DNA from: Candidatus Sulfomarinibacteraceae bacterium
Lineage (GTDB): Bacteria > Acidobacteriota > Thermoanaerobaculia > Thermoanaerobaculales > Sulfomarinibacteraceae
Reading direction: 5' to 3'
DNA length: 64,000 nt
Assembly: GCA_963796455.1 (NCBI GenBank)
Contig: CAWCLO010000004.1
Span: forward strand, 640,001 to 704,000
Shown: positions 1,935-52,875 of the stretch, piece after piece
How positions within the stretch are numbered: the first letter of the stretch is position 1
Layout: every line of letters starts with the position of its first letter
Translations under genes and position numbers: made by a program
Notes under the pieces: generated by a model
The model's database searches: none
The model's input: only the letters and a program-made list of their open reading frames with translations
Told to the model about the DNA's origin: nothing

Positions 1935-2094
1935 GCTGGGGTGCCACCCATGAAGGGCGGACGACCGCATTGTCGAGGTGCACCCGGAGGTCTGCCTTCT
2001 TGACGCCGCGCCATTCCAACAATTCGTTCCGTGGCACCGGTCCTCAGCCCCGCTCATCGATCAGCAAGTGTGAAAGTGTGTGCGTGGCACCCAT
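1935..2094. repeat. Cluster of GGGTG[G/C]CACCC palindromic repeat cores
   Basis: 1935-1955 is identical to 21532-21552, and 1939-1959 is identical to 21502-21522; a further GTGGCACCCAT at 2084-2094. Confidence 0.85.
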
Positions 2095-2286
2095 ACCTGT
2101 GCATGTCCATGTATGGATGTGTGTCAGCGAAAGGTCGGCCCATGGTAGGCTTTCACCGATATATAAGCCCAGCTGGAAAAGAAAATCACGTTTTAAGATC
2201 TCATTCCGAGATCGGAATCCGGATCCCCGCCGTTTCTGGAATAGGCGGCGACTCGTATCCGTTGTCCCGTCAGATTTGGAGGCGCG

Positions 2287-2658
2287 ATGCTCGTCGATCT
2301 GCAACGTTCGAACTTCGAAGACCACGTGATGTCCGTAGGCATCGTGCTCATCGATTGTTGGGCGCCGTGGTGCGGAGCGTGCAAGGACTTCATGCCCACC
2401 TTCGAAGCGGCGGCCGAGCGCCACGCCGAGCACACCTTCGCCAAGCTCGATACCCAGGCCGAGGAGGAGCTCGCCAAGAAGCTCAAGGTGAGTCACATCC
2501 CTACCATCATCCTGTTCCGCGATGGGCTGCTGCTCCTGCGGCGGCCGGGCTATCTGTCAGAGGTGGAAATCGACGAGGCCATCGGCACCGCAGAGGGTCT
2601 CGATATGGAACATGTACGGGCCGACATGGAGAAGCGGCTGGCCGGCGAATCCGGCTGA
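2287..2658 (+). CDS. Thioredoxin family protein
   Basis: DCWAPWCGAC active site, cis-Pro region IPTIILF; GGAGG RBS. Confidence 0.92.
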   Translation: MLVDLQRSNFEDHVMSVGIVLIDCWAPWCGACKDFMPTFEAAAERHAEHTFAKLDTQAEEELAKKLKVSHIPTIILFRDGLLLLRRPGYLSEVEIDEAIGTAEGLDMEHVRADMEKRLAGESG

Positions 2659-2711
2659 GCTTCGCCGAACCATGTCATTGAAGATGAACTGAACACAACA
2701 AGGAGGAAGCG

Positions 2712-2894
2712 ATGACCGAGATCTACGAAGCTGATGTGGAGTTCAAGAAGACCCTGGGTGTGAAGTGGGTCAAGGTTGATTCGGGCCACACCTATCTGTG
2801 CCCGGTGGATGCTCTCAAGCGGTTCGAAAACCCTACCGAGGAACAGCTCAAGATGATCTGTGTCGACGAGTCGGATAACCCGCAGAACGACTGA
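2712..2894 (+). CDS. Small hypothetical protein (60 aa, two Cys)
   Basis: Strong AAGGAGGA RBS, host-like codon usage, lies within the redox gene run. Confidence 0.75.
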   Translation: MTEIYEADVEFKKTLGVKWVKVDSGHTYLCPVDALKRFENPTEEQLKMICVDESDNPQND

Positions 2895-2935
2895 GCCCGA
2901 GCGCCTTCAAGGCGCTCTCAGATCGTCAAATGTAA

Positions 2936-2974
2936 GGCGCCGCTGCGCCCGTGGCGCGGCGGCGCCATTTTTTT
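2936..2974 (+). terminator. Intrinsic terminator directly upstream of the peroxiredoxin RBS
   Basis: 14-bp stem GGCGCCGCTGCGCC/GGCGCGGCGGCGCC followed by ATTTTTTT. Confidence 0.75.
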
Positions 2975-2984
2975 GGAGTGCATC

Positions 2985-3584
2985 ATGTCATTGCTGGTCA
3001 CCAAACCCGCGCCGGAATTCACGGCCACCGCCGTCCTCGCCGACGATAGCTTCGACGAGCAGTTCAGCCTCTCGGCCCTGCGCGGCAAGTACGTCGTGCT
3101 CTTCTTCTACCCGCTGGACTTCACCTTCGTCTGCCCCACCGAGATCCTTGCCTTCGACGAGGCGCTCGAGGATTTCCGCAAGCGAGATGCGGAGGTCGTC
3201 GGCGTGTCGGTGGACTCGCACTACACCCACGCCGCGTGGAAGCGCACCCATGTGGACGATGGTGGCATCGGTCCAATCCGCTACCCCCTGGTCTCCGACC
3301 TCAACAAGGAGATCGCACGCAGCTACGGCGTGCTGCTCGACGAGGGCATCGCGCTGCGAGGGCTCTTCCTGATCGACAAGGAAGGCATCGTCCGCCACGC
3401 CCTGGTCAACGACCTGCCGCTCGGCCGCAATGTCAGCGAGGCCCTGCGGGTGCTCGACGCGCTGCGCTTCCACGAGCTGCGCGGCGACGTCTGCCCGGCC
3501 AACTGGAACGAGGGTGAGGATGGCATCGAGGAGTCCCAGGACGGAATCGTCGACTACCTCTCCAAATACGCCGCCAAAGACTGA
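2985..3584 (+). CDS. ahpC: Typical 2-Cys peroxiredoxin (AhpC/TSA)
   Basis: FFYPLDFTFVCPTE and VCPANW motifs; GGAG RBS at 2975. Confidence 0.95.
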   Translation: MSLLVTKPAPEFTATAVLADDSFDEQFSLSALRGKYVVLFFYPLDFTFVCPTEILAFDEALEDFRKRDAEVVGVSVDSHYTHAAWKRTHVDDGGIGPIRYPLVSDLNKEIARSYGVLLDEGIALRGLFLIDKEGIVRHALVNDLPLGRNVSEALRVLDALRFHELRGDVCPANWNEGEDGIEESQDGIVDYLSKYAAKD

Positions 3585-3814
3585 GCTGTCTGCCAGGCTT
3601 TCGGATTTTCGGAAGTTCGAGCGAGAATCAAGACCAAACAAATCCCCAGGTTCCTGAAGCCTGGCAGCGAAATTTTTGAAATTCGAATCCACGCGAACCA
3701 CGGCGGGCTTGGAGGCGCAGCACCCAACAATGCGAAGGGTGGAACCCACAGGCGTTCAGGACCATGTACTATGGCCTCCGCACCTAAAATCGAGAGCTGG
3801 TGAGGGGAGAGACC

Positions 3815-4177
3815 ATGGAAACTGCTGTTCTCATCATTCAGGTCGTGATCGCCCTGGGAATCTTCAATGTCTGGGTTCTTCGTTTCGGGAAATCGACCGA
3901 GTGGCGCGGCGGTACAGCCGCCAACATGAAGGAAGAGTTCCAGGCCTATGGCCTGCCGTCGTGGTCGGTGCAGGTCGTCGGTTTCCTGAAGCTCGTGTTT
4001 GCCGCATGTCTGCTCGCGGGCATCTGGTTTCCGACGTTGACCAAACCTGCGGCGGTCGGCATCGCGATTCTGATGCTCGCTGCTGTCGCGATGCATCTGA
4101 AGGTCAAAGATCCATTGAAAAAATCCCTGCCTGCCCTGACGATGCTTCTCCTGTCGGTGATCGTCGCGGCATCCTGA
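3815..4177 (+). CDS. DoxX-like membrane protein
   Basis: Four hydrophobic helices; EEFQAYGLP and AVAMHLKVKDP, typical of DoxX_2 proteins. Confidence 0.8.
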   Translation: METAVLIIQVVIALGIFNVWVLRFGKSTEWRGGTAANMKEEFQAYGLPSWSVQVVGFLKLVFAACLLAGIWFPTLTKPAAVGIAILMLAAVAMHLKVKDPLKKSLPALTMLLLSVIVAAS

Positions 4178-4302
4178 CCCGTCTCCGTCCGCTCGCGGGA
4201 ATAGGAGTAGGGGGAATCAGGTTCCGCCATCTAGCGTCTCGCACGATTAAAAAGCGGTTTGGTATTTAGCGGAGCGTGGTTTTCGCTTCGGGAGGATCAG
4301 CA

Positions 4303-4485
4303 ATGACTGTAACGAAAAAAGCGAAGTTGCTCATTATCGTGGCCGCGGGATTGTCTTTTCTTTTATCAGTCGGCCTTTGGTTTAGCGGGCAAAAAGAAGA
4401 GGGTATGTTTGTCGGTCTCTGGGTGCCGTCCATTCTGTCCCTTGGAGCGCTGCTTTTCGCCGGTCGGGGAGCGTCGAGCCAATGA
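4303..4485 (+). CDS. Small two-TM membrane protein
   Basis: GGAGG RBS; two hydrophobic segments including GMFVGLWVPSIL; ATGA overlap with the next gene. Confidence 0.7.
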   Translation: MTVTKKAKLLIIVAAGLSFLLSVGLWFSGQKEEGMFVGLWVPSILSLGALLFAGRGASSQ

Positions 4486-4673
4486 GCGCTCTTGGCATTT
4501 TCCTTTTCGGGCTCGTCGTCACCGGAATCACGCTGACGGCGGTTTTCCTGATAGGCCTGAGTGAAGCTTCTGATCCAGCGCATAGCCGGCTGAGCGATCT
4601 CTCGGCGCTGGAGAGAAAATTGGTCTCTCGGCCGAACGAAGGGGAAGAGGACGCGTCGAGCGGCGCGCGGTAG
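4482..4673 (+). CDS. Small single-TM membrane protein
   Basis: Translationally coupled (ATGA) to the upstream gene; N-terminal TM helix. Confidence 0.65.
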   Translation: MSALGIFLFGLVVTGITLTAVFLIGLSEASDPAHSRLSDLSALERKLVSRPNEGEEDASSGAR

Positions 4674-4800
4674 ATAGGTCGGCCGTTCGCGGAGTGACCT
4701 CGTCACGCTGGATCGCTTGAGACTTCGGTCCGGCGGATCGTGTGAGCTGGAATTCGCTTCCTGTCCTTGAGGTTGCCCAGGCATCGCAAAAGGAGGAAAA

Positions 4801-5433
4801 ATGTCACGACGCGCTTCAGTTTTTGTCTCAATGTCGTTTCTCGTGGTGGTTGCTATTGCCTGCGGAGGTGGGCAGCAGCAGTCTTCTGGCCCGCAACCCG
4901 CGCAGCCGGTGGCGGCAGTCGAGGAGGGTCCGACGGGGACCATCGACCACACCGTCGAGTCGTTGACCGGTGACACGGTCGAGCTGGCCTCCTTCCGAGG
5001 TCGGCCGATGCTGATCGTCAACACCGCCTCGAAGTGCGGCTATACACCGCAGTACGAAGGCCTCCAAAAGCTCTACGAGCGCTACGGCGAGGGCGATCTC
5101 GTGGTGATCGGTTTTCCGAGTAACGATTTCGGAAATCAGGAGCCCGGCACAGCCGAGGAGATCGGTAACTTCTGTCGCCTCAACTATGGTGTGACCTTCC
5201 CGATGATGGCCAAGGTCCATACCAAGGGCGTCGATCAAGCGCCAATCTATCGGACTCTCACCGCCGAGAGCGGCGACGAATACGAGGGCGAGGTTCGGTG
5301 GAACTTTACGAAGTTTCTGATCGACCAGGAAGGTCGTGTGGTTGCTCGCTTCGAGTCCGCGGTCGAGCCGTTAGATGAACAGATTACCTCTGCCGTCGAT
5401 GCATTATTGGCCGAGGCGACTCCGCAGGGTTGA
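4801..5433 (+). CDS. Glutathione peroxidase family (Cys type), probable lipoprotein
   Basis: NTASKCGYTPQY, GFPSNDFGNQEPG and WNFTKFL motifs; lipobox-like IAC after a hydrophobic stretch. Confidence 0.93.
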   Translation: MSRRASVFVSMSFLVVVAIACGGGQQQSSGPQPAQPVAAVEEGPTGTIDHTVESLTGDTVELASFRGRPMLIVNTASKCGYTPQYEGLQKLYERYGEGDLVVIGFPSNDFGNQEPGTAEEIGNFCRLNYGVTFPMMAKVHTKGVDQAPIYRTLTAESGDEYEGEVRWNFTKFLIDQEGRVVARFESAVEPLDEQITSAVDALLAEATPQG

Positions 5434-5496
5434 GGTATTTCTTGGGGCTCGATCGGGGCTGCAGCCTATAATGTTCGACGAAGGGCGAACAGAACC

Positions 5497-5946
5497 ATGA
5501 GCGACGACCGCAGCCACATGGAAGCTCTGCGCGAGATGCTGGACCACCAGCTGCTGGGTGTGCTTGGAACTCATCACGAAGGCGAGCCCTACACGAGCCT
5601 GATCGGTTTCGCGGCCACCGCCGATCTCAAACACCTGCTCTTTGCTACCGGTCGTGCAACTCGCAAGCACGCCAATCTTGCCGCCGATGCCCGCGCCTCG
5701 ATGTTGGTCGACACCCGAACGAATCGTCCTGTCGACTTTACAGAGGCGGCCGCTGCGACCGCGGTAGGAGTGGTGGAAGAGGTGGCGAAATCCGAGCGCG
5801 AGGACTTCGACCGGGTTTTCCTGGCCAAGCATCCCCATCTCGAGAGCTTCGTGCGTTCGCCGAGTTGCGTGCGGCTGCGCCTCCGGGTGTCGGTCTACAT
5901 GGTGGTGGCCCGCTTCCAACACGTCATCGAACTCCATATCGACTGA
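5497..5946 (+). CDS. Pyridoxamine 5'-phosphate oxidase-like FMN-binding protein
   Basis: Split-barrel motifs GEPYTSLIGF, FATGRATRKHANL and KHPHLESF. Confidence 0.85.
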   Translation: MSDDRSHMEALREMLDHQLLGVLGTHHEGEPYTSLIGFAATADLKHLLFATGRATRKHANLAADARASMLVDTRTNRPVDFTEAAAATAVGVVEEVAKSEREDFDRVFLAKHPHLESFVRSPSCVRLRLRVSVYMVVARFQHVIELHID

Positions 5947-8159
5947 TGAATTTGGTTGTCGGCCTCGACCAGATCGGTGATGACGACGGTGGCCGGGTCG
6001 GTGGCAAGGCCGTTGCGCTCGCGGCTCTGAAGCGGACCGGCCATCCCGTTCCCCGTTCGCTGTGCCTGACGACCGATGCCTACGAACTGTTCGTCGAGCG
6101 GGCGTCGCTGCGAGCCGTCCTCCACCAGGAGCTGGGTCGCAAGAATTTCGAGGACATGCGCTGGGAAGAGATCTGGGACGTGGCGCTGCGCATCCGCAAC
6201 CGCTTTCTGAGGGCACCGGTGCCACACGATGTCGTGGCCGCGGTCGAAGCACAACTGGCGAAATATCTGCCCGAGGTCGCTCTCGCGGTGCGCTCGTCGG
6301 CGCCCGGCGAAGACTCGGAAGGCGCGTCCTTTGCCGGCCTCCACGACAGCTTTGTCGGCGTGTTCGGCGCCCCTGCAGTGGTCGAGGCGATTCGCGGGGT
6401 ATGGGCCTCGTTGTGGAGCGACCGGGCCCTGCTCTACCGCCGCGAACTCGGAATCGACGTTGACACGAGTTCGATGGCAGTCGTGATCCAGGAGCTCATT
6501 GAAGGCTCGGTCTCCGGGATCGCCTTCGGGGTCCATCCGACGGATCCTGAGCTGGCCGTCGTCGAGTCGGTCTACGGCCTCAACCAGGGTCTGGTCGACG
6601 GTACGATCGAACCCGATCACTGGACCGTTGACCGGATGACGGGGCGCACCGTTTCGCACACTGCACCGAGCGGCCGCCGGCGGCTGCTGGCCCGCGGTTC
6701 TCAAACTCAGGTCGAACAGGTGCCGCCGGGCATGGCTGGCACACCGCCGCTCGACGAGGAAAGCCTGACCCGCGTCGTCGATGCGGCTCGCGCCGCCGAG
6801 GCACTTTTCGGTGCGCCGCAGGACGTGGAATGGACCATCGCTGATGGGCGGCTGGTGCTCTTGCAGTCGCGGCCCGTGACAACTTCCACCGCGAGTGAGG
6901 GCGACAAGCGGGCGTGGTACCTGAGCCTGACCCGCAGCCTCGACAATCTCCGCGGCCTCCGCGAGCGGGTCGAAAGTGAATTGCTGCCGGCGATGGATCG
7001 GGAGGCTGATGAAATCGCGGAGCGCGATCTCGGGGTGCTCGATGCCGAGGACTTGGCTGAGGAGATCGAGCGCCGCCGGACAGTCCACGACCGATGGGTC
7101 GACATCTACTGGCGGGAATTTATTCCATTAGCGCACGGCATTCGTCTCTTCGGTCAGTTCTACAACGACATCGCACGGCCGGATGATCCTTACGAGTTCA
7201 TGGAGCTGCTGGCTGCCACACCGATGCTCAGCGTTCGCCGCAACGGCGAGCTTGAACGAATCGCTTCGATGGTGCGGGAAAGTCCCGAGATTCGCGCCAG
7301 TCTCGCAAGCGGAGAACCTGCCGATGCAGAATTCGAACGTGAGTTCGAGGGTTTTCAGCGCACGTTTGGCGACACGGTTTATGCAGACCAGCAGTGCTTT
7401 GCCAATCGTGCACGCCTGGTACGGTTGCTGCTGTCACTGGCTGACGTGCCGGCGGCGGCGAAACCGGCGTCCGCTGTCGATGTCGAAGCTCGCACCGAAG
7501 CCTTCATCGAAAGTGTCGACATCGACAGGCGCGAGCTGGCACGGGAGCTGGTCGATATCGGACGGGTCAGCTACCGGTTGAGGGATGATGACAACATCCA
7601 TCTTGCCCGTCTCGAGGGTCTGGTGTTGGCGGCGGTCGAGAAGGGCCGGCGAAAGCTCGGCGAGCGCAGCGGTGATGTTGCGCGCGCGGAGCTCGAGGAT
7701 GTCGTGCTTGGGCTGCGTCACCCGAATCTGGTGGTCGAGGCGAAACCGGAGCAGCAGCGACTGGTTGCTGAGCCAGGTTTCCGCGCGCGGCCGCGGCAGC
7801 TGGTCGGCCAGCCGGCGGGCCCGGGGGTGACCACCGGCGCCGCCCGTGTGATCGACGACGTCGATGACCTCTTCGAGTTCCAGCCCGGCGAGGTGCTGGT
7901 GTGCGACGCGGTCGATCCAAACATGACATTTATCGTACCGATGGCGAGCGCGGTCGTCGAGCGCCGAGGCGGCATGTTGATTCACGGCGCCATCATCGCC
8001 CGCGAGTACGGTCTTCCATGCGTCACGGGTGTTCCCGATGCCACGAAACTGATCGGCACCGGCGACCAACTGACGGTGGACGGTTACCTCGGTATCGTGA
8101 CCGTCAGCCGACCAACGCCCTCGCAAGGTCGAAGCATCCGTGGCCTCGATCAGGGCTGA
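5946..8159 (+). CDS. PEP-utilising dikinase, rifampicin phosphotransferase-like architecture
   Basis: N-terminal ATP-grasp (GGKA, AVRSSAPGEDSEGASFAG, QDVEW, LQSRPVT); C-terminal swivel His domain (GGMLIHGAIIAREYGLP); TGATG overlap with the upstream gene. Confidence 0.88.
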   Translation: MNLVVGLDQIGDDDGGRVGGKAVALAALKRTGHPVPRSLCLTTDAYELFVERASLRAVLHQELGRKNFEDMRWEEIWDVALRIRNRFLRAPVPHDVVAAVEAQLAKYLPEVALAVRSSAPGEDSEGASFAGLHDSFVGVFGAPAVVEAIRGVWASLWSDRALLYRRELGIDVDTSSMAVVIQELIEGSVSGIAFGVHPTDPELAVVESVYGLNQGLVDGTIEPDHWTVDRMTGRTVSHTAPSGRRRLLARGSQTQVEQVPPGMAGTPPLDEESLTRVVDAARAAEALFGAPQDVEWTIADGRLVLLQSRPVTTSTASEGDKRAWYLSLTRSLDNLRGLRERVESELLPAMDREADEIAERDLGVLDAEDLAEEIERRRTVHDRWVDIYWREFIPLAHGIRLFGQFYNDIARPDDPYEFMELLAATPMLSVRRNGELERIASMVRESPEIRASLASGEPADAEFEREFEGFQRTFGDTVYADQQCFANRARLVRLLLSLADVPAAAKPASAVDVEARTEAFIESVDIDRRELARELVDIGRVSYRLRDDDNIHLARLEGLVLAAVEKGRRKLGERSGDVARAELEDVVLGLRHPNLVVEAKPEQQRLVAEPGFRARPRQLVGQPAGPGVTTGAARVIDDVDDLFEFQPGEVLVCDAVDPNMTFIVPMASAVVERRGGMLIHGAIIAREYGLPCVTGVPDATKLIGTGDQLTVDGYLGIVTVSRPTPSQGRSIRGLDQG

Positions 8160-8227
8160 AAACGGTAGTCTCTGTCAGTTGCTTCAAATGGGCGCCATTT
8201 GGGCGGTACCCATGTGCTCGTCACACT

Positions 8228-9325
8228 TCAACAATTCGCTACGTGGGACCCATCGCGGCTCACCACCACCACGCTGCAGTCGTCGTAGAGGGGCTCGTCG
8301 CCGCGAAAATCGTCCACCTGTTGCAGCACCCGGTCGTGCACCGATCGGCTCGAACCGCCTTGCGCCACGGCCGCCATCAGGCGCTCGAACCCGAACGATT
8401 CGCCGGCGCGGTCGAGAGTCTCGAAGACTCCGTCGGTGAACAGAAGAAGGGTGTCGCCAGGCTCGACCACCGCGTGATCGGCCACCATCTCGAGATTGAG
8501 CCGAATACCCAGCGGCAGGCTCCCTGTGCCGAGTTCGAGGACCTCACCCGAAGCGCGCCGAAGCAGTGGGTACGGGTGGCCGGCGCAGACGTAGTCCAGC
8601 CTCCCGCTCGGAGGGTCCAACACGCCGCAAAACAAGGTCATGAAGTCGCGGCTGCCGCCGGTGCGGTACAGGGCGCGGTTGACCAGGCGGCTCACCGGAA
8701 TGGGCTCGGAATCGTGGTCGAACCCGAGCTTGAGCGCCGAGTTGGCGATCGCCATCACCAGTCCAGCGGCGATGCCGTGACCGCTGGCGTCGCCGATGAC
8801 GATGGCGAGACGTCCGTCGTCGAGCGGCAGGAAGTCGTAGTAGTCGCCACCGATGGTGTTGGCGGTGCGGTAGGAGAACATGAACTCGTAGCCCTCGACC
8901 CCCGGTTCCTGTCTGGGCAGCAGCTCGCGCTGCAGATCGCGCGCCACCTCGAGTTCGTCGCGCACCACGACTCGATCGGCGAGTTCGAGCACCAACAGGA
9001 AGATCAGCCCGGCGATGCTCACGAGCGACAACGGCATTAATCGATAAGTCATCCCCCACAGCGCGAAGACGATGCACGCTACAAAAACCAACCGTCGCGG
9101 TGGCGACAGCTTGTAAGACAGCCCGAGAAACAGAATTTTCGCTCGGTAGAAAAATCGCCAGAAGCGGCTGGCGGGCTCCCCGTCGTTGTCGTGCTCGCGC
9201 GTTACCACTTCGTATGCCCGCACGGCATCGCGATCGAAGAGGCGTCGGAACTCGCCCCCGCGAAAGCCCTCGGTCGAGGACCTCACGTATTGCTCCGCCT
9301 TTCGAAACCACTCCGCCGTTTTCAT
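8228..9325 (-). CDS. PP2C/SpoIIE (RsbU-like) phosphatase with TM segments
   Basis: GGDYYD, IGDASGHG, LFTDG and DDCS motifs. Confidence 0.92.
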   Translation of the reverse strand: MKTAEWFRKAEQYVRSSTEGFRGGEFRRLFDRDAVRAYEVVTREHDNDGEPASRFWRFFYRAKILFLGLSYKLSPPRRLVFVACIVFALWGMTYRLMPLSLVSIAGLIFLLVLELADRVVVRDELEVARDLQRELLPRQEPGVEGYEFMFSYRTANTIGGDYYDFLPLDDGRLAIVIGDASGHGIAAGLVMAIANSALKLGFDHDSEPIPVSRLVNRALYRTGGSRDFMTLFCGVLDPPSGRLDYVCAGHPYPLLRRASGEVLELGTGSLPLGIRLNLEMVADHAVVEPGDTLLLFTDGVFETLDRAGESFGFERLMAAVAQGGSSRSVHDRVLQQVDDFRGDEPLYDDCSVVVVSRDGSHVANC

Positions 9326-9430
9326 CGTGCCCCACAGCGTACTACGGTTGCCTTGACCCTTTGGTTTCGGCGCTCCCTCAGGGCCCAGCCTCACTGAGAA
9401 TGTCTGGCGCCCCCTTGCTCGCATCCTCAT

Positions 9431-9476
9431 AAAGCAACAATGAGTCATTGCGAAGGATGGCACCCATCGCACCCAT
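9431..9476 (+). repeat. Subfamily A repeat arm with doubled end
   Basis: AAAGCAACAATGAGTCATTGCGAAGGATGGCACCCAT followed by CGCACCCAT; aligns without gaps to 14019-14055 and 25371-25407. Confidence 0.85.
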
Positions 9477-9741
9477 CGGCTGGTATCGGGATGGTTGCTG
9501 TCAAACCGACGAGGCGGATCTCGGGCGCCACGTGGCGTGCGCGGTGATGACCGGGAAATTCCTCGAGTTCACGCGATCCCGCGGCAACGATCTGTCGACA
9601 CCGGCGTCACAGCCCGGCTTGCCGGGGTTCAAACCCGGCGACCGTTGGTGTCTCTGGACGACCTTGAGGCACACTCCGCTGATCCCGTGGCATAAATCCC
9701 TGCCCAAACCGGTGGAGATTACCGGCCAGGGTGCCGCGTAA
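9468..9741 (+). pseudogene. DUF2237 family fragment lacking N- and C-termini
   Basis: GWYRDGCC..., HVACAVMT.EF, SRGNDLSTP and PGDRWCL are DUF2237-like motifs; no proper start, begins right at a repeat end. Confidence 0.75.
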
Positions 9742-9816
9742 TTCAACGTGACATGAGGTGGGACCAAATCGATTCACAAAGTCAACAGGTGATGCGTGGC
9801 GCCTCTGGTGAAAAAA

Positions 9817-13643: not shown

Positions 13644-13669
13644 AGGGGCGTCCCGCCAGACGCGCGAGA

Positions 13670-13948: not shown

Positions 13949-13971
13949 AGGCGCCCCCTTTTGCTTCACCA

Positions 13972-44205: not shown

Positions 44206-44754
44206 ATGGGGATGGGGTCGATTTACGATCTCGGCGGGCCTGGGCACCGCGCACCTCAAGACGAGCGCGAGCAATTCGATCGCTTCGATGACGCGCTCCG
44301 CTGGATACACGGCCTCACCTGGACCTGTGCCGAGCAATGGGTCGCCCACCGGAAGCGATGGAACGCCCAACATGACCGCGCACTGCTCACAAAACTCGAG
44401 GTCCAACAGCAGGTGGTCATTTCGGCCAAGGAATGCCTTCGTTGCCGGTGGCAGGCGGCAGTTCGGTCGGACATGACAGTGGCGGTCAATACCCTCGAGA
44501 AGGAGCCCTTTCTGCGACAGCTTGTCACGCGCGGGGGCAAAGCGGTTTCTCGAGCCCTGTTGCGACCTCGCACGGCCAAACAGCTGGCTGGTCACGGAAA
44601 GCTTCGCGATGCTCTCATGGCGACGCTGCCTGACCAGGGCGTCAAGGTCTATAGCAAGCGCTATCCTACTCGTTGCCCAGCATGTCAAGGACGTCTTATC
44701 GGGACCTATCTCACCCTTGAGGAGGAGACGGTTCGCGCGTTGGTCAAAGGATGA
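44206..44754 (+). CDS. Hypothetical protein (two CxxC pairs), 5' end possibly degraded
   Basis: ORF only; CLRC and CPAC motifs. Confidence 0.4.
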   Translation: MGMGSIYDLGGPGHRAPQDEREQFDRFDDALRWIHGLTWTCAEQWVAHRKRWNAQHDRALLTKLEVQQQVVISAKECLRCRWQAAVRSDMTVAVNTLEKEPFLRQLVTRGGKAVSRALLRPRTAKQLAGHGKLRDALMATLPDQGVKVYSKRYPTRCPACQGRLIGTYLTLEEETVRALVKG

Positions 44755-44782
44755 GCCGGGTGCCAGCTCCCGGACAGCCGCG

Positions 44783-45295
44783 ATGGCATTTCGTTCTCCG
44801 ATTTCTGATCGACTGGGCGTTGATCGCATCTGCCTGACAGGGGTGTTTGTCGGGCCGTCCGCCCTGGTCGGCCTTGTCGGCCCGGCGATGGTCTGGGAAT
44901 TCGTTCATGCGTTTTACGGACTGTTCTTGAGCAACCTGCGGGTGGCGAAAGGCTCCCTGATGAGCTGGATTTTCGTCGCTTCAGTCTCGATTGTGGTTGT
45001 GATTTATGCCTTCGCCGTCAATGGCTGGGTTGTGCTGACCTTTGCAGTGCTTTCGACTCGGTATCTGCTTGCAGGTAATGCCGGGCAAATTCAGTCTGCT
45101 TTTGCCGACACTGTGCAGTATGTCTTTGCCGTCTTTCCAGCCGGCTTCCTCGCCTACGTGGCCACGCAGACGGCTGACCTGACGATGGCACAGGGCGTTG
45201 TCCTCTTTGCCGGGCTCTATTTCCTGGCGCGCTGGTTTTTTTCGAACTACTGGGATCCGTACCGCTGGCTCGGGGTCGACTGGCATCCAGGCTGA
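44783..45295 (+). CDS. Hypothetical membrane protein
   Basis: Several hydrophobic helices; start uncertain. Confidence 0.55.
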   Translation: MAFRSPISDRLGVDRICLTGVFVGPSALVGLVGPAMVWEFVHAFYGLFLSNLRVAKGSLMSWIFVASVSIVVVIYAFAVNGWVVLTFAVLSTRYLLAGNAGQIQSAFADTVQYVFAVFPAGFLAYVATQTADLTMAQGVVLFAGLYFLARWFFSNYWDPYRWLGVDWHPG

Positions 45296-45390
45296 ACCAA
45301 TTCGAAGATGGTCGGCACCCATGTGGCACCCAAGCCGAGCCTCCGCTATCCTCTGCGTTGCCGTGTGCGCCCGGATCCGGAGGTCAAATC

Positions 45391-46170
45391 ATGCTGATCC
45401 TATTGTCCCCAGCCAAGAGTCTCGTCGAAGGACCTGCCGTCGACGGCCTGCCTGCCACCCAACCGGTTTTGCTCGATCAGACCGAAACACTGATGAAAAC
45501 GACTCGTCGTCTGAGCGCACCCAAGATCAAAAAACTGATGGGCGTCAGCGACCGACTCTCGGTCCTGAACCGCCAGCGCTTCCGGGATTGGACGACGCCC
45601 TTCACGACTGAAAATGCACGCCAGGCCGCGCTGATGTTCAGTGGAGATGTATACCGCGGTTTCGACGCAGCCACCCTCAGCGTCGAGGATCTCGCTTTTG
45701 CCCAGGACCACCTGGTGATCCTTTCCGGCCTTTACGGCGCCCTGCGTCCACTGGACCTGATCCAACCCTATCGCCTCGAGATGGGCACCCGGCTTAATAC
45801 GAGACGTGGCAAAGACCTCTATGCCTTCTGGGGCCGGCGCATCACGGACCGATTGAATGAGCTCACCGAGGGGCAGGAAGATCGCACCGTCGTCAACCTG
45901 GCCTCAAAGGAATACTTCAAAGCGGTCCAGCCTGAAAAACTCGCCGGTCCTCTCGTCACCCCGGTCTTCAAAGACGTCAAGGACGGCAAAGCACGATTCC
46001 TGTCATTCTTTGCCAAAGCGACCCGCGGCAAGATGGCGCGGTGGGCGATCCAGAATCGCATGTCCACGAAGGATCAACTGCGTGCCTTCGATGGCGGCGG
46101 CTACGTGTTGCAACCCGAACTCTCCGACGAGACGCACTGGGAGTTTCACCGCCCCGGAGTGAATTGCTGA
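45391..46170 (+). CDS. yaaA: Peroxide stress protein YaaA (DUF328)
   Basis: LSPAK, FSGDVY, LSGLYGALRPLDLIQPYRLEMG, NLASKEY and AKATRG motifs. Confidence 0.95.
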   Translation: MLILLSPAKSLVEGPAVDGLPATQPVLLDQTETLMKTTRRLSAPKIKKLMGVSDRLSVLNRQRFRDWTTPFTTENARQAALMFSGDVYRGFDAATLSVEDLAFAQDHLVILSGLYGALRPLDLIQPYRLEMGTRLNTRRGKDLYAFWGRRITDRLNELTEGQEDRTVVNLASKEYFKAVQPEKLAGPLVTPVFKDVKDGKARFLSFFAKATRGKMARWAIQNRMSTKDQLRAFDGGGYVLQPELSDETHWEFHRPGVNC

Positions 46171-46328
46171 TGGGTGAGGGGTGGGTCTTCAACTTTGTTG
46201 CCGGTGACGAGGGCTCGATCGACCGGATCGACTTCGAGTCGGATGGTCTGACCATGATCGTGAAACGCGTTGGAGAATAGTCGGGGAACGGCCAGGGTGC
46301 GCCTCCAGGGTGCCAATGAATCTCTCGA

Positions 46329-46778
46329 CTATCGTTGGTTGCTGTTGTCCATGTCCGACATGATCATCCAGCGGCCGTCAGGGTCTTTATGCAAGGTGAG
46401 CGTGAACTTTCCGATATCGGGTTCGCCGCTGTGCCGCGAAAACCCTCCAATGATATAGCCCAGCGAACCTTCTGTCGCGAAAGCAAGTGCCCGGAGCACA
46501 AGCGCGCCGCCGCTATTTTTGTAGCGAAGTTCGATCTTTTTCCTGCCCCGGACCGGCGGCCTTCCACTCGAGAGGACAAAGCCATCTTCGGTGAAAAGGG
46601 CTGCAAGGGCTTTTTCGTCTTTGGCCCGCCAGGCTTCCTCGTAGTCAGTGAGAACGCGAGCGAGTTCCGGGGGGAGCGAGATCGTCGGCTCGGATGGTTC
46701 CTCTGCGCCACACACCGCGCCGCACCCGACCACCAAGGCCGCAGAAACGGCCACCAAAACCGGACCAACACTCTTCAT
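46329..46778 (-). CDS. DUF4440/SnoaL-like (NTF2 fold) secreted protein
   Basis: ALAALFTEDG, GKF and DGRWMI motifs. Confidence 0.8.
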   Translation of the reverse strand: MKSVGPVLVAVSAALVVGCGAVCGAEEPSEPTISLPPELARVLTDYEEAWRAKDEKALAALFTEDGFVLSSGRPPVRGRKKIELRYKNSGGALVLRALAFATEGSLGYIIGGFSRHSGEPDIGKFTLTLHKDPDGRWMIMSDMDNSNQR

Positions 46779-46873
46779 TTTTCCCCTCCGCCTCTTTCTC
46801 TACAGTGCCGCGGCGGCGCCGATGTGGGAACCGGAAAAGAGGGCGCCACACTCGAGTGGCACCCACGCAATTT

Positions 46874-47239
46874 CTAGCTTTCCACGTGGAAGAGTTTGTT
46901 GTAGATCCGCCACTGACCGTCGGTGTTGAGGAGCGACAGAGTGTCCAGGAAGGTCATGCCCAGGTAGTCGTCGCGCACCCGGGCGACTGCTGTCTTCCCG
47001 GCGATGTCGAGCGAGACGACTTCGAGCCGTGCGTTCTCCCCCTTCTCCCGGGGAGAGGGCTGCTGACTTTCCACGAAACCGGCGAAATCGACCACCGACA
47101 TCTCGTGCAGCTCGCCGTTGATCTCGCCGGTGATCTTGGCATTTGGATGGAATGCTGAGTGGGCCTTCTCGCCGCTCGACTCGAACATGGAGTCGAAGTA
47201 GGTCTGGATCGTGTCCTTGATTGCTTGCTCGTCGCTCAT
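46874..47239 (-). CDS. NTF2-like (lumazine-binding_2 type) protein
   Basis: YFD...AFHPNA and DTLSLL..DGQWRIYNK; GGAGG RBS. Confidence 0.82.
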   Translation of the reverse strand: MSDEQAIKDTIQTYFDSMFESSGEKAHSAFHPNAKITGEINGELHEMSVVDFAGFVESQQPSPREKGENARLEVVSLDIAGKTAVARVRDDYLGMTFLDTLSLLNTDGQWRIYNKLFHVES

Positions 47240-47386
47240 TTCTCACCTCCGGAATCGTGGATATTAATATTGTTGTTTTGTTTCGCAACCGACGAGAGCT
47301 GATGGGAATTCCCCAATCACCCAACCCGCACACCACATCTGAAGGTATGTACGTGGAATCCATGCGATCCAGGACAGAAAGGGTAT

Positions 47387-48521
47387 TCAGGTTCCGGTGA
47401 TTCGGCCCAGCGCCTCGGCCAAAGGTGCGACTGCGCGGTCCGAGTCGCCCAACTTCTCCAGGCCGAACAAGCCCACACGAAACGTGCGGAAATCGGACGG
47501 TTCATCGCACATCAACGGGACACCGGCTGCGATTTGCAGGCCCTGTGCAAGGAACTTGCTGCCGTTCTGGATTTCCGGATCGTCCGTGTAATAAACGACC
47601 ACACCTGGCGCCTGGTAGCCTTCGTCGGCAACACTTTTGAAGCCGTGGCTCTGCAGAAGCTCACGGACTTTCTTACCCAGTTCCCACTGTTTTTCACGCA
47701 TGGTTTCGAGCCCGTAGGAACAGGTCTCCATCATGTTGTCCCGAAACGTTTTCAGTGCGTCGGTTGGAAGTGTTGCATGGTAGGCATGTCCGCCGTTTTC
47801 ATAGGCTCGCATGATGTCGAGCCATTTCCGCAGGTCACAGGCGAAGCTGTTGCTGGTGGTTTTGCCAACTCGTTCCAGTGCGTTCTCGCCCAGCATGACG
47901 AGGGCACCGCATGGAGAGGAACTCCATCCTTTTTGAGGGGCGGTGATCAACACGTCAACACCGCTGGCTTTCATATCGACCCACACACAACCGGAAGCGA
48001 CACTATCAAGAACAAATAAACCACCATGTTCATGAACGGCTTCGGCAACGGCGCGGATGTATTCATCCGGCAGGATCATGCCCGAGGACGTGTCCACGTG
48101 CGGCGCAAAAACGACATCCGGTTTTTCGAGTCGGATCGTATCCGTCACTTCGCCGATGGCGGGTGGCACGAACGGCGCCTCTGGTCCGGCAGCCCTCTGC
48201 CGGGCCTGCAGAACGGTGAGTCTCGTCGGTGAGGCCGCCCATCTCAATGATCTGAGACCAGCGGAAACTGAAAAAACCATTTCGGATCACCAGGCACTTC
48301 TGACCGGTGGCGAACTGGCGGGCAACCGACTCCATCCCGTAGGTGCCGCCACCCGGCACGACGATCACAGCCTCAGCGTTGTAAACGTCCTTGAGGGTGG
48401 TTGAAATATCCCTCATCACCTGCTGGAAAGTCTGTGACATGTGGTTCAGGGAGCGGTCGGTGAACACGACCGAGTATTCGAGCAGTCCTTCCGGATCAAC
48501 CTCAGGCAACAAGCTGGTCAT
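47387..48521 (-). pseudogene. Class V aminotransferase (serine-pyruvate/alanine-glyoxylate type), frameshift near 48218
   Basis: LLEYSVVFTDRSLNHMS and PGGGTYGME in one frame; PHVDTSSG and the PLP-lysine motif ITAPQKGW in the next. Confidence 0.87.
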
Positions 48522-48811
48522 TCGCGGGTTCCTCCTTGAGTTTTCTGGGTGGTCAAACGCAATGATCTCTTCAGGTTCACCCAGGAAACGCGGTTCTTCA
48601 TCGCCAGTATTGTAGTGGTACCCGTGGGAAGCTGCCCGACGTTTTCGGGGCGCCCGCTGTTTTCGCCAGGGCACCGATGTTCGCTACCACCCTCGATCGT
48701 CGACCCCCACATTGGCCCTGCTCCGTTGTAATGTTGTGATCAGTGCCACCCGAGCATGGACAGTAACCTTTCGTTACCCGTCGGGTATGATCACCCCCAG
48801 GGAGAAAGTCC

Positions 48812-51541
48812 ATGGCCCAGTGTCCATCATGCTCGGCGGAAATACCGGAGAGTTCGAACAGCTGTCCGAGCTGCGGTGCGGATCTTGATCTCTCGTCGCT
48901 GATGACCGAGACCGGGCTCTCCCAGGATGGAGTCCCCACGCAACCGCCGACGCCGGGACCGCAATCAGGCCCCTCGGCCGTAGGAATCACGAGCGATCTC
49001 CAGGGAGACGGCGACGAGCACCAACCCGGCACCATTCTCGGCGGGAGGTACCGTGTGGTTGGATTGCTCGGGCGCGGCGGCATGGGTTCGGTATATCGGG
49101 CCGATGATCTCACCCTCGGGCAGCCGGTCGCGCTGAAGTTTCTTCCCGATGAACTGGCCGCCAATCTCGATCGTCTCGAGCGTTTCCGGGCCGAGGTCCG
49201 GGTCTCCCGCCAGGTGTCCCACGCCAACGTCTGCCGCGTTCACGACATCGGTGAAGCCGACGGCAAGATCTTTCTTTCCATGGAACTGGTGGATGGAGGA
49301 GATCTCTCGTCGCTGCTCAAGCGGGTCGGTCGCCTGCCCACCGATCGCGGTCTGGAGATCGCCCGCCAACTCTGCGCGGGGCTGGCGGCGGCGCACGACC
49401 GCGGTGTGCTTCACCGCGACCTCAAACCGGCCAACGTGATGATCGACGCAGAAGGTCGGGTTCGAATCGCCGACTTCGGGTTGGCGGGAATCGCCGGCGG
49501 GTTCGAAGGATCCGAGATTCAAAGCGGAACGCCCGCCTATATGGCCCCTGAAACCCTGAGTGGGCGAGAGGTCACCACCCGATCCGACATCTACGCTCTG
49601 GGGCTGGTCCTGTACGAGCTTTTCACGGGAGCCAGGGCTTTCCGCGGCGCGAGTATCGCCGAACTCACCAAAAAGCACACCGAAGAGTCGGCCACCGATC
49701 CAACCGCGATCATCGGCGATCTCGACCCTCAGATCGAACGCGTGATCCTGCAATGCCTCGAGAAGGACCCGCTGGCGAGGCCCGAATCCGCGTTGGCCGT
49801 GGCGATGGCGCTGCCCGGCGGCGACCCGCTGGCCGCGGCCCTGGCCGCCGGTGAAACTCCGTCTCCCGAACTGGTTGCCCAGGCGGGGGCCGAGGGAACC
49901 CTCAAACCCTGGCAAGGCTGGGCCCTCCTGGCCTCGGTTGTGGTCTCTCTTCTTGCGTTTGTCGCCGCCAGCTCGTACCGGCATATCCTTTTTTTCGAGC
50001 CCATGGATCGCCCACCCGAAGTGCAGCTCGATCGGGCCGTCGAGTTGCTGACCACTCTCGGACTCGATGTTCCGACCACCGATCGGATCACGGGCTTTTC
50101 AGCCGACTTCAATATCCTCCGCGAGATCAACAATGACGGGGCCTCGCCTGAAGAACTTGACGCGCTTTCCGAAGGTGAGATCTCGGTGATCGGGTTCTGG
50201 CTCAGGGCGGCGCCATCGGAATTGGTGGCCGAGCGCATCTCAGGTCGGGTGTCGAGGACGCGACCGGCGCGAAACATGGCCGGCGAGCTCTTCGCCTCAT
50301 TCGACAGCCACGGTCGACTGCGTTTTCTCGACGTCGTGCCCGACGAAATGATGGCGTCAGATGGCTCGTCCCCGATGAACACCACAGAGGAGGCCTGGCA
50401 GGGCGTGTTGGCAGCGGCGGGTCTCGATTCCCAGGCATTTGAAGAGTCGATACCGCTTTGGTCTCCGCCCCGGTTTATCGACGAGCTTCGCGCCTGGTCA
50501 TTGCGGGGAGTGGGAGAAGGGGATCTCGCCGTCAATCGGATCGAGGTCGGGAGTCGATCCGGACGACCGGTTTATCTGCGGACCGGAACCTCCCTCGACG
50601 AGGCGGTGGGCCGATCGGCCTCGACCCGCGGATCAGACCTCGGACAGGCATTGAATGCCGGGCTCATCGTGGTGGTTTTGATCGTCGGTGGCCTCATCGC
50701 GCGCCGGAACCTACGCCGCGGTCGAGGAGATTTGCGGGGGTCGTGGCGCATGGCGGGGTTCGTATTCGCCCTCGGAATGACAAGCTGGTTGGTCTCGGCT
50801 CACCATGCTTTCGGCGCCGGCAGGGAGTTGAATCTTTTTGTGCTCGCGGCGGGCGGTTCGTTGTTCATTGCGGGTTTTGTGTGGTTGCTCTACGTCGCTC
50901 TCGAACCCGAGGTCCGGCGGCATTGGCCCAAACGCCTCATCTCCTGGCAGCGTATGTTGGCCAGGAGCTATCGCGATCCCTTGGTAGGACGGCACGTGCT
51001 GGTGGGTCTTCTCATCGGAACCAGCATGAATCTGCTTGTTGCGTTGATTGCCATCGTCTCCTCGATGCTCAATACTTCAGCCCTCGAACTCAGCGCGTCC
51101 GGGATGGCTCACCTGACCGGAACCGGGTTCGTGGTCGGGTCGGTTCTGGCCCAGGCCGGCCAGGCGATCTTCGCCGGCGTCTTCATCACGGTACTCGTCC
51201 TTCTCGTGAGACTCGTCCTGCGTCGGACCTGGGCCGCGGTGGCATTGTCTGTAGCAATTATTGTCGCGATGAATGTGCTCGGGTCGGAGGACCCATTCTG
51301 GGACGGTTTGGCCTCGACGGTCATCCTCGCCGCGGTCATGGCTGCGCTCCTTCGTTTTGGTCTGCTTTCTCTGATTGCTGTCGTCTTTGTCGTCAACGTT
51401 CTCCAGGTCATCCCGCAGACTATATCCCTGTCGGCGTGGTATTTTCCGGCGACAGCGATTCCGGTGCTCGTCGTGCTGGCTCTCGCGGCAGCCGCGTTCG
51501 CGGCCTCCCTCGGCCGCCAGTCGTGGTTCGGCTCAGACTAG
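48812..51541 (+). CDS. Hanks-type Ser/Thr kinase with zinc-ribbon N-terminus and multi-TM C-terminus
   Basis: CPSC...CPSC; GRGGMG, VALK, HRDLKPAN, DFG and GTPAYMAPE motifs; many TM helices. Confidence 0.95.
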   Translation: MAQCPSCSAEIPESSNSCPSCGADLDLSSLMTETGLSQDGVPTQPPTPGPQSGPSAVGITSDLQGDGDEHQPGTILGGRYRVVGLLGRGGMGSVYRADDLTLGQPVALKFLPDELAANLDRLERFRAEVRVSRQVSHANVCRVHDIGEADGKIFLSMELVDGGDLSSLLKRVGRLPTDRGLEIARQLCAGLAAAHDRGVLHRDLKPANVMIDAEGRVRIADFGLAGIAGGFEGSEIQSGTPAYMAPETLSGREVTTRSDIYALGLVLYELFTGARAFRGASIAELTKKHTEESATDPTAIIGDLDPQIERVILQCLEKDPLARPESALAVAMALPGGDPLAAALAAGETPSPELVAQAGAEGTLKPWQGWALLASVVVSLLAFVAASSYRHILFFEPMDRPPEVQLDRAVELLTTLGLDVPTTDRITGFSADFNILREINNDGASPEELDALSEGEISVIGFWLRAAPSELVAERISGRVSRTRPARNMAGELFASFDSHGRLRFLDVVPDEMMASDGSSPMNTTEEAWQGVLAAAGLDSQAFEESIPLWSPPRFIDELRAWSLRGVGEGDLAVNRIEVGSRSGRPVYLRTGTSLDEAVGRSASTRGSDLGQALNAGLIVVVLIVGGLIARRNLRRGRGDLRGSWRMAGFVFALGMTSWLVSAHHAFGAGRELNLFVLAAGGSLFIAGFVWLLYVALEPEVRRHWPKRLISWQRMLARSYRDPLVGRHVLVGLLIGTSMNLLVALIAIVSSMLNTSALELSASGMAHLTGTGFVVGSVLAQAGQAIFAGVFITVLVLLVRLVLRRTWAAVALSVAIIVAMNVLGSEDPFWDGLASTVILAAVMAALLRFGLLSLIAVVFVVNVLQVIPQTISLSAWYFPATAIPVLVVLALAAAAFAASLGRQSWFGSD

Positions 51542-51621
51542 ATAGGGAGTGCCGCCCGAATCGACACGTGCTTTTTTCAGGACGGCACCATGGTGGAGCC
51601 AGAGCGCAGGCACCTCACGTA

Positions 51622-52704
51622 TCAGCGCACGGCGTCGAAAATGTGCGTGTAGAGGAATTCGATCGGAGCGTTCTGCTCCTGCCGGCCTCGGGCGCCGGCG
51701 GTGACCACGACGACCATGTCAAGCTCGGGTGCGACAAAGATGTACTGGCCCTTGAAGCCGAATGCGCCGTAGACATCCTGCGTGCCGCTACCCCCGGGAG
51801 CCGGGGGCAGTACCCACCACCAATAGCCGTAACCGACGACCCGGTCACGCTGACCCTCGAGCTCGACCTGTCGTGACAGTGAGTCTGCGACCCAGGAGGT
51901 AGGCAGGATTTGTTTGCCGTCCCAACGCCCCTTTTGCAGGTACAACAGCCCGAGCTTGGCCATGTCCTTGGAGCGGAGGTGCAAACCACCCCCGGTATGC
52001 GGGTGCCCCTCGGCGTTGCGATACCAGCGGCTCTGCTCGATTCCCATTGGCGCGAACAGGTATTTTTCAGCAAAGGCGTCGGCGTGCATGCCGGTGCGCT
52101 CTTTGAGGATCGCGGAGGTCAGGATCACCGCTCCCGAGTCATAGCGAAAGCTCGTTCCGGGCTCAGCGATCATGGGTCGATCGAGAATGAACTTCGTCCA
52201 TCCCCGGCTCAGGCGGTTGAGCTGAAAATGAGGGGAGTCCGAACCGCGCTCGTGATAGTCCGTGCCGCTGCGCATGGTCAGCAGATCTTCGAGAGTTATC
52301 TCTCGCTTGCGCTCATCCAGGTTTTCGATGTCGTCGATTTCGGGAAAGAAGGCCAGGGCCCTCTCGTCCACCCCCTCGATCTTGCCTTGGCTGATGGCGA
52401 TACCGACGAGGGCCGAGGTGAAACTCTTGCTGACCGATTGCTGCTCGTGAAGCTCCTCGGCGCCGTGCCCGTTGAAGTACTCCTCGAGCACGAGCCGCCC
52501 GTTGCGAACGATCAGCAGACTGTGAATGTTGCGGATCTCGTTCTTACGCAGAGCTGCGACGAGGTTGTCGAGGCGTTCGCCGTCCAGACTCTGCTCGGCG
52601 GGAGTCGAGCGGATCCAGGACTCGGTCGGCCGGGGTGACTCCCCGGAGGCAGGAATGCAGGCCGAACAAACCAGGACGACCAGCAGGATTGCGGATCGGA
52701 TCAT
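51622..52704 (-). CDS. Serine hydrolase, beta-lactamase/AmpC-like family, lipoprotein
   Basis: SVSK (SxxK), LLTMRSG, FRYDS and YGYWWW motifs; lipobox SAC. Confidence 0.92.
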   Translation of the reverse strand: MIRSAILLVVLVCSACIPASGESPRPTESWIRSTPAEQSLDGERLDNLVAALRKNEIRNIHSLLIVRNGRLVLEEYFNGHGAEELHEQQSVSKSFTSALVGIAISQGKIEGVDERALAFFPEIDDIENLDERKREITLEDLLTMRSGTDYHERGSDSPHFQLNRLSRGWTKFILDRPMIAEPGTSFRYDSGAVILTSAILKERTGMHADAFAEKYLFAPMGIEQSRWYRNAEGHPHTGGGLHLRSKDMAKLGLLYLQKGRWDGKQILPTSWVADSLSRQVELEGQRDRVVGYGYWWWVLPPAPGGSGTQDVYGAFGFKGQYIFVAPELDMVVVVTAGARGRQEQNAPIEFLYTHIFDAVR

Positions 52705-52875
52705 GATCAGAAGATACGGCCTAGGGCATCCTCGGGTTTACCTGGGTGTCACGATGGTGGCACCCAAACTTGCTCTGAAACCATTGACCGTCGTCTGAAG
52801 AGCATGGAATCGAATCCTCCGGGGTGTGTTAGTCTCCGCACGAAAACCTTCCAGAAGATGAGAACGGAGCCTGAA

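Follow-up and report, generated by a model that had tools for sequence, protein, structure and literature searches.

The stretch of DNA analysed here, called the window throughout, comprises 64,000 nucleotides of a Candidatus Sulfomarinibacteraceae bacterium (assembly GCA_963796455.1, contig CAWCLO010000004.1, positions 640,001 to 704,000, forward strand), in which accessory genes, operons included, lie in mixed orientation and are separated by a short dispersed repeat. We found that these repeats are orphan arms of the terminal inverted repeats (TIRs) of TIRYT HUH transposases (TnpA-Y1 subclass 2.1, or RAYT group 1), mainly of one clade, and that arms of many subfamilies have accumulated with a common orientation in a few accessory regions of the genome. 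In what follows, G000 is the assembly under study, C4 and the like are contigs, G001, G005, G006 and so on are relatives, and L numbers are loci examined; an arm is a family-specific repeat of 22-30 nt, its tip is the outer end, and its leader is the 4 nt past GGCACC. Our calls rest on the open reading frames (ORFs) of the window, on Pfam, and on DNA and protein comparison with congeners.

A sequence-only reading of the window had reported twelve exact copies of GGCACCCAT, and all were recovered with the same positions and strands, ten on the plus and two on the minus strand, where 100 dinucleotide shuffles of the window contain 0.65 copies on average and never more than 3. As it had claimed, all twelve lie outside genes, with coding spans (ORFs plus Pfam matches, some long ORF starts being trimmed by hand to the likely start) covering 84% of the window; the eleven degenerate copies it had listed are all present, to within a few bases, and the interiors of the RND, suc and GMC operons hold no exact or well-matching copy. 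The repeat unit is longer than was then supposed, and consists of a family-specific arm of 22-30 nt ending in GTGGCACC plus the 4-nt leader, usually CATG. Compared with a library of 155 arms from known TIRs, the window has 39 arms at no more than 5 mismatches in 22 nt, against 9 for a reversed-library control; one is identical to a library TIR and 13 have one or two mismatches. Three intragenic library matches (at 15647, 52154 and 54419, with 4-5 mismatches in 22) do not rise above the level of that control. Cognates were identified for the two commonest arm families of the window, A (L219, L229, L142, L221) and B (L234, L151). Transfer RNA and Rfam scans of the window found nothing. The arms, tips and associated modules are as follows; where no strand is given, none is assigned.

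1..52770, plus: right-hand part of the polarised zone of TIRYT ends and accessory genes, the majority of tips pointing toward higher coordinates
220..232, plus: degenerate tip, where the homology of a fasciclin/oxidoreductase module with G006:C20 begins
1937..1951: minimal two-tip remnant, directly past the stop of 951-1934
2016..2095, plus: an arm nearest L214 (3 mismatches in 22) and an arm nearest L141 (2 mismatches in 22), belonging to different TIR families
3585..3750: decayed GGTGCCAGG-clade arm pair and a family A plus-strand arm, the latter nearest L142
8188..8254, plus: tips and an arm, nearest L214
9426..9477, plus: family A arm with re-copied tip, library match
9477..9663, plus: DUF2237 gene fragment beginning at the tip; all 4 relatives examined have the complete gene
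9781..9807, plus: decayed arm, just past an oxidoreductase stop
12899..12925, plus: GGTGCCAGG-clade arm, nearest L205
13969..14056: two-arm mini element of family A, tips outward, library match
18449..18484, plus: arm, nearest L146
20367..20511: two minus-strand arms and a family B plus-strand arm with re-copied tip; the latter has 1 mismatch to the L234 TIR, and its tip abuts the stop of 20512-21594
21499..21598: stacked minimal remnants of two tips each, with a family A plus-strand arm, library match
24211..24314: mixed pair of a decayed GGTGCCAGG-clade minus-strand arm and a plus-strand arm, the latter nearest L137
24320..25280, minus: mscS module with facing tips at both limits, which are homology limits
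25287..25408: stacked minus-strand tips and a plus-strand arm of another family, library match
27682..27780: two-arm mini element of family B, library match
35675..35760, minus: lone arm, nearest L137/L053, passing into sequence that resembles a TIRYT gene at its 3' end
37243..37254, plus: bare tip, exact motif
38616..38752, plus: tip, family A arm with re-copied tip, and GGTGCCAGG-clade arm; library match
39929..40062: two-arm mini element of family B, then re-copied tips; its plus-strand arm is identical over 22 nt to the L234 TIR
43294..43429: decayed two-arm element, library match
43430..43840, minus: 3' fragment of a larger gene, cut at the minus-strand tip at 43840; the ORF is whole in L291
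43837..43978: stacked minus-strand tips, a minus-strand arm (nearest L137) and a two-arm element of family B
45312..45334, plus: two stacked bare tips, by motif
46296..46320, minus: degenerate tips adjoining the stop of 46329-46778
46856..46867, plus: bare tip adjoining the stop of 46874-47239
48615..48754, plus: degenerate tips and a family B plus-strand arm, library match
52742..52768: last tips of the main zone, by motif
63820..63872: outlying small two-arm remnant beyond the GMC/TPP genes, nearest L162 and L256

The identity of the repeats follows from transposase genes that are flanked by inverted repeats composed of the leader, GGTGCCA and about 22 subfamily-specific bases. Intact genes of about 325 aa with arms of the window type as their inverted repeats occur in congeners, and 47 loci have a matching 24-nt inverted pair around the gene, with further ones in wider scans. 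In a tree of 52 distinct proteins, all from this genus, the eight with a GGTGCCAC-type TIR fall together on one side of a branch with 100/100 support, and TIR sequence follows the protein tree elsewhere too. Residues H60, H62, Y119, N123 and P124 of the HUH and Y---NP motifs are invariant in 7/7 clade proteins, which match Y1_Tnp (5/5) and NCBIfam REP_Tyr_transpos (NF047646; 7/7). By sequence and fold their closest structure is TnpA-REP 4ER8 (model pLDDT 63), and a helical C-terminal domain (residues ~230-320 of the ~325-aa protein) is confidently modelled; a C-terminal helix-turn-helix (Bac_DnaA_C, HTH_23, HTH_28) reaches only a Pfam E of ~0.08 in one of five, and no DnaA appears among the structure matches listed. 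The pair GGTGCCAC / GGTGCCAG agrees at 6 of 8 positions with GGGGWSAS, a motif carried by most, not all, of the TIRs in the published descriptions available to us. According to database records, the cognate enzymes belong to Ca. Sulfomarinibacteraceae and other Thermoanaerobaculia/Holophagae.

The arms are non-palindromic 22-30-mers, each specific to its family, and inverted repeats form only where arms are paired; a short self-complementary hairpin tagged with GTAG or CGTC is not a property of them. The earlier suggestion of repetitive extragenic palindromic (REP) or REPIN elements does not hold in that form: the repeats are TIRYT terminal inverted repeats and not hairpin REPs. Two sets of resident enzymes were considered as their source and rejected: three long TIRYTs of G000 with GGTGCCAGG-type TIRs and 36% identity to the cognate clade, and three short RAYTs of 193-212 aa (C1:740752, C4:210157, C1:952748), which have hairpin REP-like repeats of their own and not the window motif. 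A long Y1 transposase of G000 has matches in 21/24 congeners.

When the density of the motif was mapped over the whole genome, it proved clustered. Exact copies number 76 in G000 and peak at C4 550-700 kb as well as at the ends of C6 and C7, and the most enriched 10-mers at these peaks all belong to GTGGCACCCATG. Arms of GGTGCCAC type number 71 at no more than 4 mismatches (control 10), and 48 of these lie within ~240 kb of the 5.02 Mb, or ~5% of the genome. The C4 zone extends over ~120 kb (~570-693 kb): it begins ~70 kb left of the window, near 570-575 kb, and the main zone ends on the right at about window position 52,770. The exact 12-mer occurs in 15 of the 18 congeners first searched (up to 59 copies, concentrated on a small number of contigs with one strand prevailing) and in 5/5 further congeners, whereas in the neighbouring family it is found in only 3/12 genomes, with one copy each. 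Smaller clusters of GGTGCCAGG-clade arms were seen at G000:C3 354-371 kb, C6 0-16 kb and C4 1133-1147 kb. As for the continuity of the stretch itself, no sequencing run contains more than 0.21 of the window's words in its contigs, and no run-contig piece among those listed spans it.

The tips have a defined end point: across 446 tips (22 stretches), conservation covers the four bases past GGCACC (CATG; 0.5-0.9 bits at +1 to +4) and is lost at the fifth (~0 from +5). They also have a polarity: in the C4 zone 15 junctions have plus-strand arms only, one has minus-strand arms only and six are mixed, all with tips outward, and over 34 stretches 179 single-orientation junctions follow the majority against 44 in the minority, with 68 of 73 mixed junctions having tips outward. 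Replication direction was considered as the cause and rejected. With the G000 origin at C10 ~578 kb, polarity agrees with it in C4 and C7 and not in C6, and in the stretches of relatives it is concordant in 10/21, by a hexamer score that is weak on short stretches.

The two ends are unequal. A CATG/CATC leader is found in 146/252 majority arms against 8/67 minority arms; where origin could be assigned, minority arms derive from the downstream TIR in 11/12 cases and majority arms from the upstream TIR in 12/19. Leader sequence seems to be inherited with the upstream or downstream TIR, in which CATG/CATC is present in 20/43 and 7/43 cases, respectively. An IS608-like rule, by which the tetranucleotide of the minority end is target-derived, was discarded: 10/12 minority tips share 0-1 of 4 bases. 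We also counted 324 distinct stacked pairs of same-strand tips within 70 nt, often of different families, and in many stacks an arm of another family, truncated on its 5' side, begins exactly at +5 with no homology. A tip is followed by an immediate re-copy of its last 5-12 bases in 141/910 cases (null 25, maximum 37). Tandem re-copies in the window lie at 63750-63780, 38720-38740 and 60078-60090.

Group II introns lie at fixed positions inside TIR arms in loci of relatives, and none was found in G000. One type is inserted after GGTGCCACG on the inward strand, with at least four near-identical copies without an ORF in G006 (L009:2834-3612, G006:C16). The second lies between GTGGC and ACC of the tip, in three copies in G008 (L062 ~10770-11560, G008:C32) and as ~2-kb copies in G014 (L057 10435-12459, G014:C1). 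Rfam confirms group II domains in L009 and L062.

The proposal that the sites mark rearrangement junctions is borne out by an enrichment of breakpoints at tips and by two mid-gene cuts in the window. We assembled 75 independent ends of cross-genome matches (at least 90% identity over at least 300 bp), after excluding matches that cover TIRYT genes, as well as ends close to N runs or to the edge of a stretch. Fifteen of these lie at -3 to +2 of the predicted cut, against 3.8 for a local-shift null (maximum 9 of 300); a repeat blind to the leader gave 13/75 against 3.5 (maximum 7), and the opposite-strand core gave 0. In the window, limits of homology coincide with tips, or lie no more than about ten bases away, at 220, 8253, 24320, 25280, 35675, 39925 and 47363. 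The DUF2237 gene starts mid-gene at 9477, directly past a re-copied tip; 8253 is the start of a SpoIIE module found also in G033 (89%) and, with 1 difference in 330, in a run contig; at 35675, the outer tip of the lone minus-strand arm, the match to G004 breaks off; and an aminotransferase module loses its similarity to G001 at 48624, a point at which G001 has a minus-strand tip. A run contig (5 differences in 360) also begins to match the window at 20505. The run-contig starts at 8253 and 20505 are seen in one contig each. We give little weight to a joint of 13671 to 20505 found in a single contig (depth 3.6, 88% threshold). When the leader is compared with the other allele, 20/30 tip junctions share 0-1 of 4 bases, which argues that the join needs no homology. 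Clean tip-by-tip swapping of arms as the usual reaction was rejected, as it is seen in 0/32 flank-sharing pairs, about five of which compare different genomes at below 99% identity.

Gene content between the repeats is not syntenic among relatives. The genome DNA searches scored 12 candidates per genome, and a module absent from the list need not be absent from a relative. Among the matches listed, the suc block beside the array gives one match of at least 4.1 kb at 74-77% in 16/24 congeners, each array module matches one to five of the examined congeners at 80-91%, and none runs across a well-preserved GGTGCCAC-type junction. G006:C20 and G005:C1 have the left boundary gene of the C4 zone and several modules in other orders, sometimes inverted; G001 likewise has modules at 80-91% in different order and orientation, and G008:C32 retains part of the module order. 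Since the motif is unevenly spread and gene content varies, the even, syntenic picture that the sequence-only reading had named as speaking against its proposal was not found. In three relatives mscS lies between genes that are adjacent, without mscS, on G000:C1; a 2.7-kb gene that neighbours it there is found at G000:C3:354.7-357.4 kb, between GGTGCCAGG-clade arms.

Two arrangements look like tip-bounded cassettes. In G001, contig C11 has a tip, then 4,811 bp with an arm and tip, then a flank, where C3 and C12 have the tip followed by the flank. In G016:C18, a 1,960-bp block occurs twice (97.7%) behind tips of two families, and each copy ends at its own arm and then runs into different DNA. 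The idea of a gene-cassette system fits only two or three cases; at most junctions the tip is fused to an arbitrary point, in some cases inside a gene, and the differing limits of modules between genomes speak against a regular cassette system. Movement of genes was also noticed elsewhere. A DoxX-gpx-PNPOx-PEP synthase-thioredoxin-peroxiredoxin block (window 2287-8159) follows, in G006:C17, a homologue of G000:C1 240.8-244.8 kb; in the array thioredoxin-peroxiredoxin stands at the front of this block, between arms. The C7 array contains a 91% duplicate (G000:C7 279901-281563 and 285081-286808), and 728 bp at C7 291561-292288 are 97% identical to G006:C20, where core genes show ~75%, indicating recent transfer between species.

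How could such zones arise? According to the available text of PMC6006769 and PMC3333891, a nick by an HUH enzyme leaves a 3'-OH together with a phosphotyrosine end, the latter can be sealed to other nicked sites, and TnpA-REP carries out this reaction with low site specificity. Judging from the junctions described above, we consider it probable that a TIRYT joins its own tip to arbitrary DNA and thereby builds polarised gene-shuffling zones. The enzyme would bind an arm, nick just past the leader (GGCACC + 4), and join the end to an essentially arbitrary second site. If that site lay downstream in cis, the intervening DNA would be deleted, leaving mid-gene cuts and stacks of 5'-truncated arms; if it lay a few bases upstream, the tip would be re-copied; and if it lay on another molecule, or were a second tip, a gene block with its own arm could be inserted, moved or copied. 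From this we infer the capture of genes by the enzyme. Because resident arms would serve as binding places for it, new ends are proposed to arrive beside old ones in the same orientation, and the zone would thus grow into a polarised array, mostly fed by congeners. More tentatively, TIRYT arms may be self-propagating landing sites of an HUH-driven integron analogue, in which cross-reacting Y1 transposases insert arm-ended gene blocks behind resident tips and excise them tip to tip, each Sulfomarinibacteraceae genome possibly having one or more polarised arrays of 50-120 kb that draw on a genus-wide pool and are old enough to have site-specific group II introns of their own.

A number of observations weigh against tip joining and capture by a TIRYT. 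The sequence-only reading had inferred an enzyme encoded elsewhere, and the cognate is a RAYT-superfamily HUH transposase, intact in congeners; however, no member of its clade was found in G000, where the best candidate has 36% identity, in an assembly that is 90.5% complete and in which two arrays run into contig ends. The array would then be either a relic here or served from an unassembled gene. Biochemistry of subclass 2.1 is not reported in the available text of PMC3733652 and PMC6006769. Stacked units match their cognate arm at 0.20-0.25 before the cut, 0.43 at 0 and 0.7-0.8 by +8, a gradual rise without a sharp step that rests on 88 of 181 units assigned. The data contain no head-to-head tip junction with a 4-nt gap, and 5/30 junctions share all four leader bases, which points to a second position of cutting or to artefacts. 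In the G001 pair both ends show ~23 nt of near-identity, so it could be a product of host recombination, and the three contigs concerned may represent different strains in a single bin. The identity of modules above that of the suc genes could reflect gene-specific conservation.

Several of the results fit a passive history, in which TIRtrons and mini-TIRtrons insert in a tolerant accessory region and erode it by deletion from their tips, genes move by homologous recombination and with other elements, and arms merely mark the damage. Deletion from tips alone explains the stacks, the truncated genes with their mid-gene cuts, and many junctions. Moreover, 60/75 breakpoints do not lie just outside a tip (three of them end at the shared arm's own tip), and 57/75 are not at tips of either kind; all 32 pairs with a common outer flank keep the same adjacent arm, most of these pairs being trivial duplicates; and group II introns and other elements gather in the same places. 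The passengers also look local, with an array G+C of 0.599 equal to the genome mean and a standard deviation of 0.026 (0.015-0.038 in other 118-kb blocks), and we accordingly dropped a distant origin of the passenger genes. Yet deletion alone would not readily orient many unrelated arm families alike, independently of replication direction, nor does it put one block behind tips of two families or invert modules relative to arm polarity between genomes. We therefore hold this passive history to be unlikely, if far from negligible. By comparison, we regard as very improbable that the repeat is an ordinary REP or transcription-factor site kept for the regulation of accessory genes, as the intergenic position of all twelve exact copies, many near gene ends, could suggest. 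Its copies are clustered in ~5% of the genome, the family found at a given gene end differs between genomes, junctions cut genes, and the match of the arms to the TIRs of specific transposase subfamilies largely refutes it. Hardly credible, finally, is an integron-type array (a cluster of attC sites lacking an integrase, CALIN) that TIRYT ends have colonised and whose attC sites are substrates of IntI. A C-terminal IntI-like fragment does lie 185 kb away (C4:878636-878941; 160 bits against a cut-off of 265), but G000 has no IntI above the TIGR02249 cut-off, the genes are in mixed orientation, operons included, and a rough scan of the window without positive control yielded only two box pairs of the form RYYYAAC...GTTRRRY, which lie inside genes and pair poorly. 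Tyrosine recombinases in G000 amount to two whole genes and one fragment, none near the arrays. Sequence resembling the IntI fragment was also noticed in G032:C22 and G008:C27.

Integrons are polarised arrays of attC sites between accessory genes, served by IntI, and ISCR/IS91 elements are characterised by one-ended rolling-circle capture, Y2 enzymes and ori/ter ends. The zones described here share with integrons and CALINs a polarised array of sites between unrelated accessory genes, a shuffled pool common to relatives, a tip-to-tip empty/filled pair, and group II introns inserted in the sites, as known for group IIC-attC introns (PMC3001079, as far as its available text goes). They differ in that no IntI or attC was found, limits are mostly not fixed, site families are many, and genes keep their own orientation and upstream regions. 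With ISCR/IS91 they have in common an HUH enzyme and one fixed and one variable end next to captured or truncated genes; here, however, the enzyme is of Y1 type with TIRs, and the fixed end is joined to DNA outside it.

The enzyme family and its TIR repeats are already known, as TIRtron/TIRYT (PMC3733652), TnpA-Y1 subclass 2.1 (PMC6006769) and RAYT group 1 (PMC5581495). To judge from the accessible parts of these papers, the likeness extends to a long Y1 HUH protein with a C-terminal helical domain, a gene flanked by TIRs and not by hairpin REPs, and several paralogues per genome, each with its own TIR and with solo and paired TIR copies elsewhere; the published TIR families are dispersed repeats, whereas here we see 100-kb polarised clusters, unequal ends, a defined end point and tip-joined gene blocks. 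E. coli TnpA-REP with its REPs and bacterial interspersed mosaic elements (PMC3333891, structure 4ER8) has the same fold, and low-specificity cleavage and strand transfer are proposed to diversify and amplify its repeats, like the stacked truncated arms here. In contrast, REPs are tetranucleotide-tagged hairpins spread genome-wide and cleaved at CT, and no passenger genes are described in the available text. IS200/IS605 elements (IS608, ISDra2; PMC6006769, available text) share the Y1 HUH chemistry, two functionally unequal ends and a terminal tetranucleotide inside one end, but the arms of the window lack subterminal hairpins, a target-derived tetranucleotide and a lagging-strand bias.

The nearest published idea is the association of prochlorosin arrays with subclass 2.1 TnpA-REP (bioRxiv 2020.03.09.984088), which involves the same subclass, truncated copies in variable gene clusters and a proposed diversifying recombination. 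In that case no inverted repeats were found, a single gene family is concerned, and the authors withdrew the causal claim in a note. In a search mostly of open-access main texts, we found neither polarised arrays of 50-120 kb nor the end point, unequal ends or tip-joined gene blocks in print (Figure 9 or the additional files of PMC3733652 may list related acidobacterial TIRs), and no publication on an HUH tyrosine transposase with integron-like gene capture in the mostly open-access literature. The accessible text of PMC6006769 and PMC5581495 does not settle the function of RAYT group 1/TIRYT enzymes or the reason for their retention in genomes. The locus makes TIRYT function directly testable, as it supplies a concrete substrate (an arm of 22-30 nt with its leader), a predicted cut (GGCACC+4), unequal ends, and natural products in the form of stacks, mid-gene joints and a tip-to-tip indel. 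If insertion behind tips is true, accessory-gene arrays would be built by single-strand transposase chemistry without an integrase, invisible to integron finders, in an uncultured sediment lineage.

A further dispersed repeat is present by the lpd stop (window 54029-54284), with at least 12 other copies in G000 at 79-86%.

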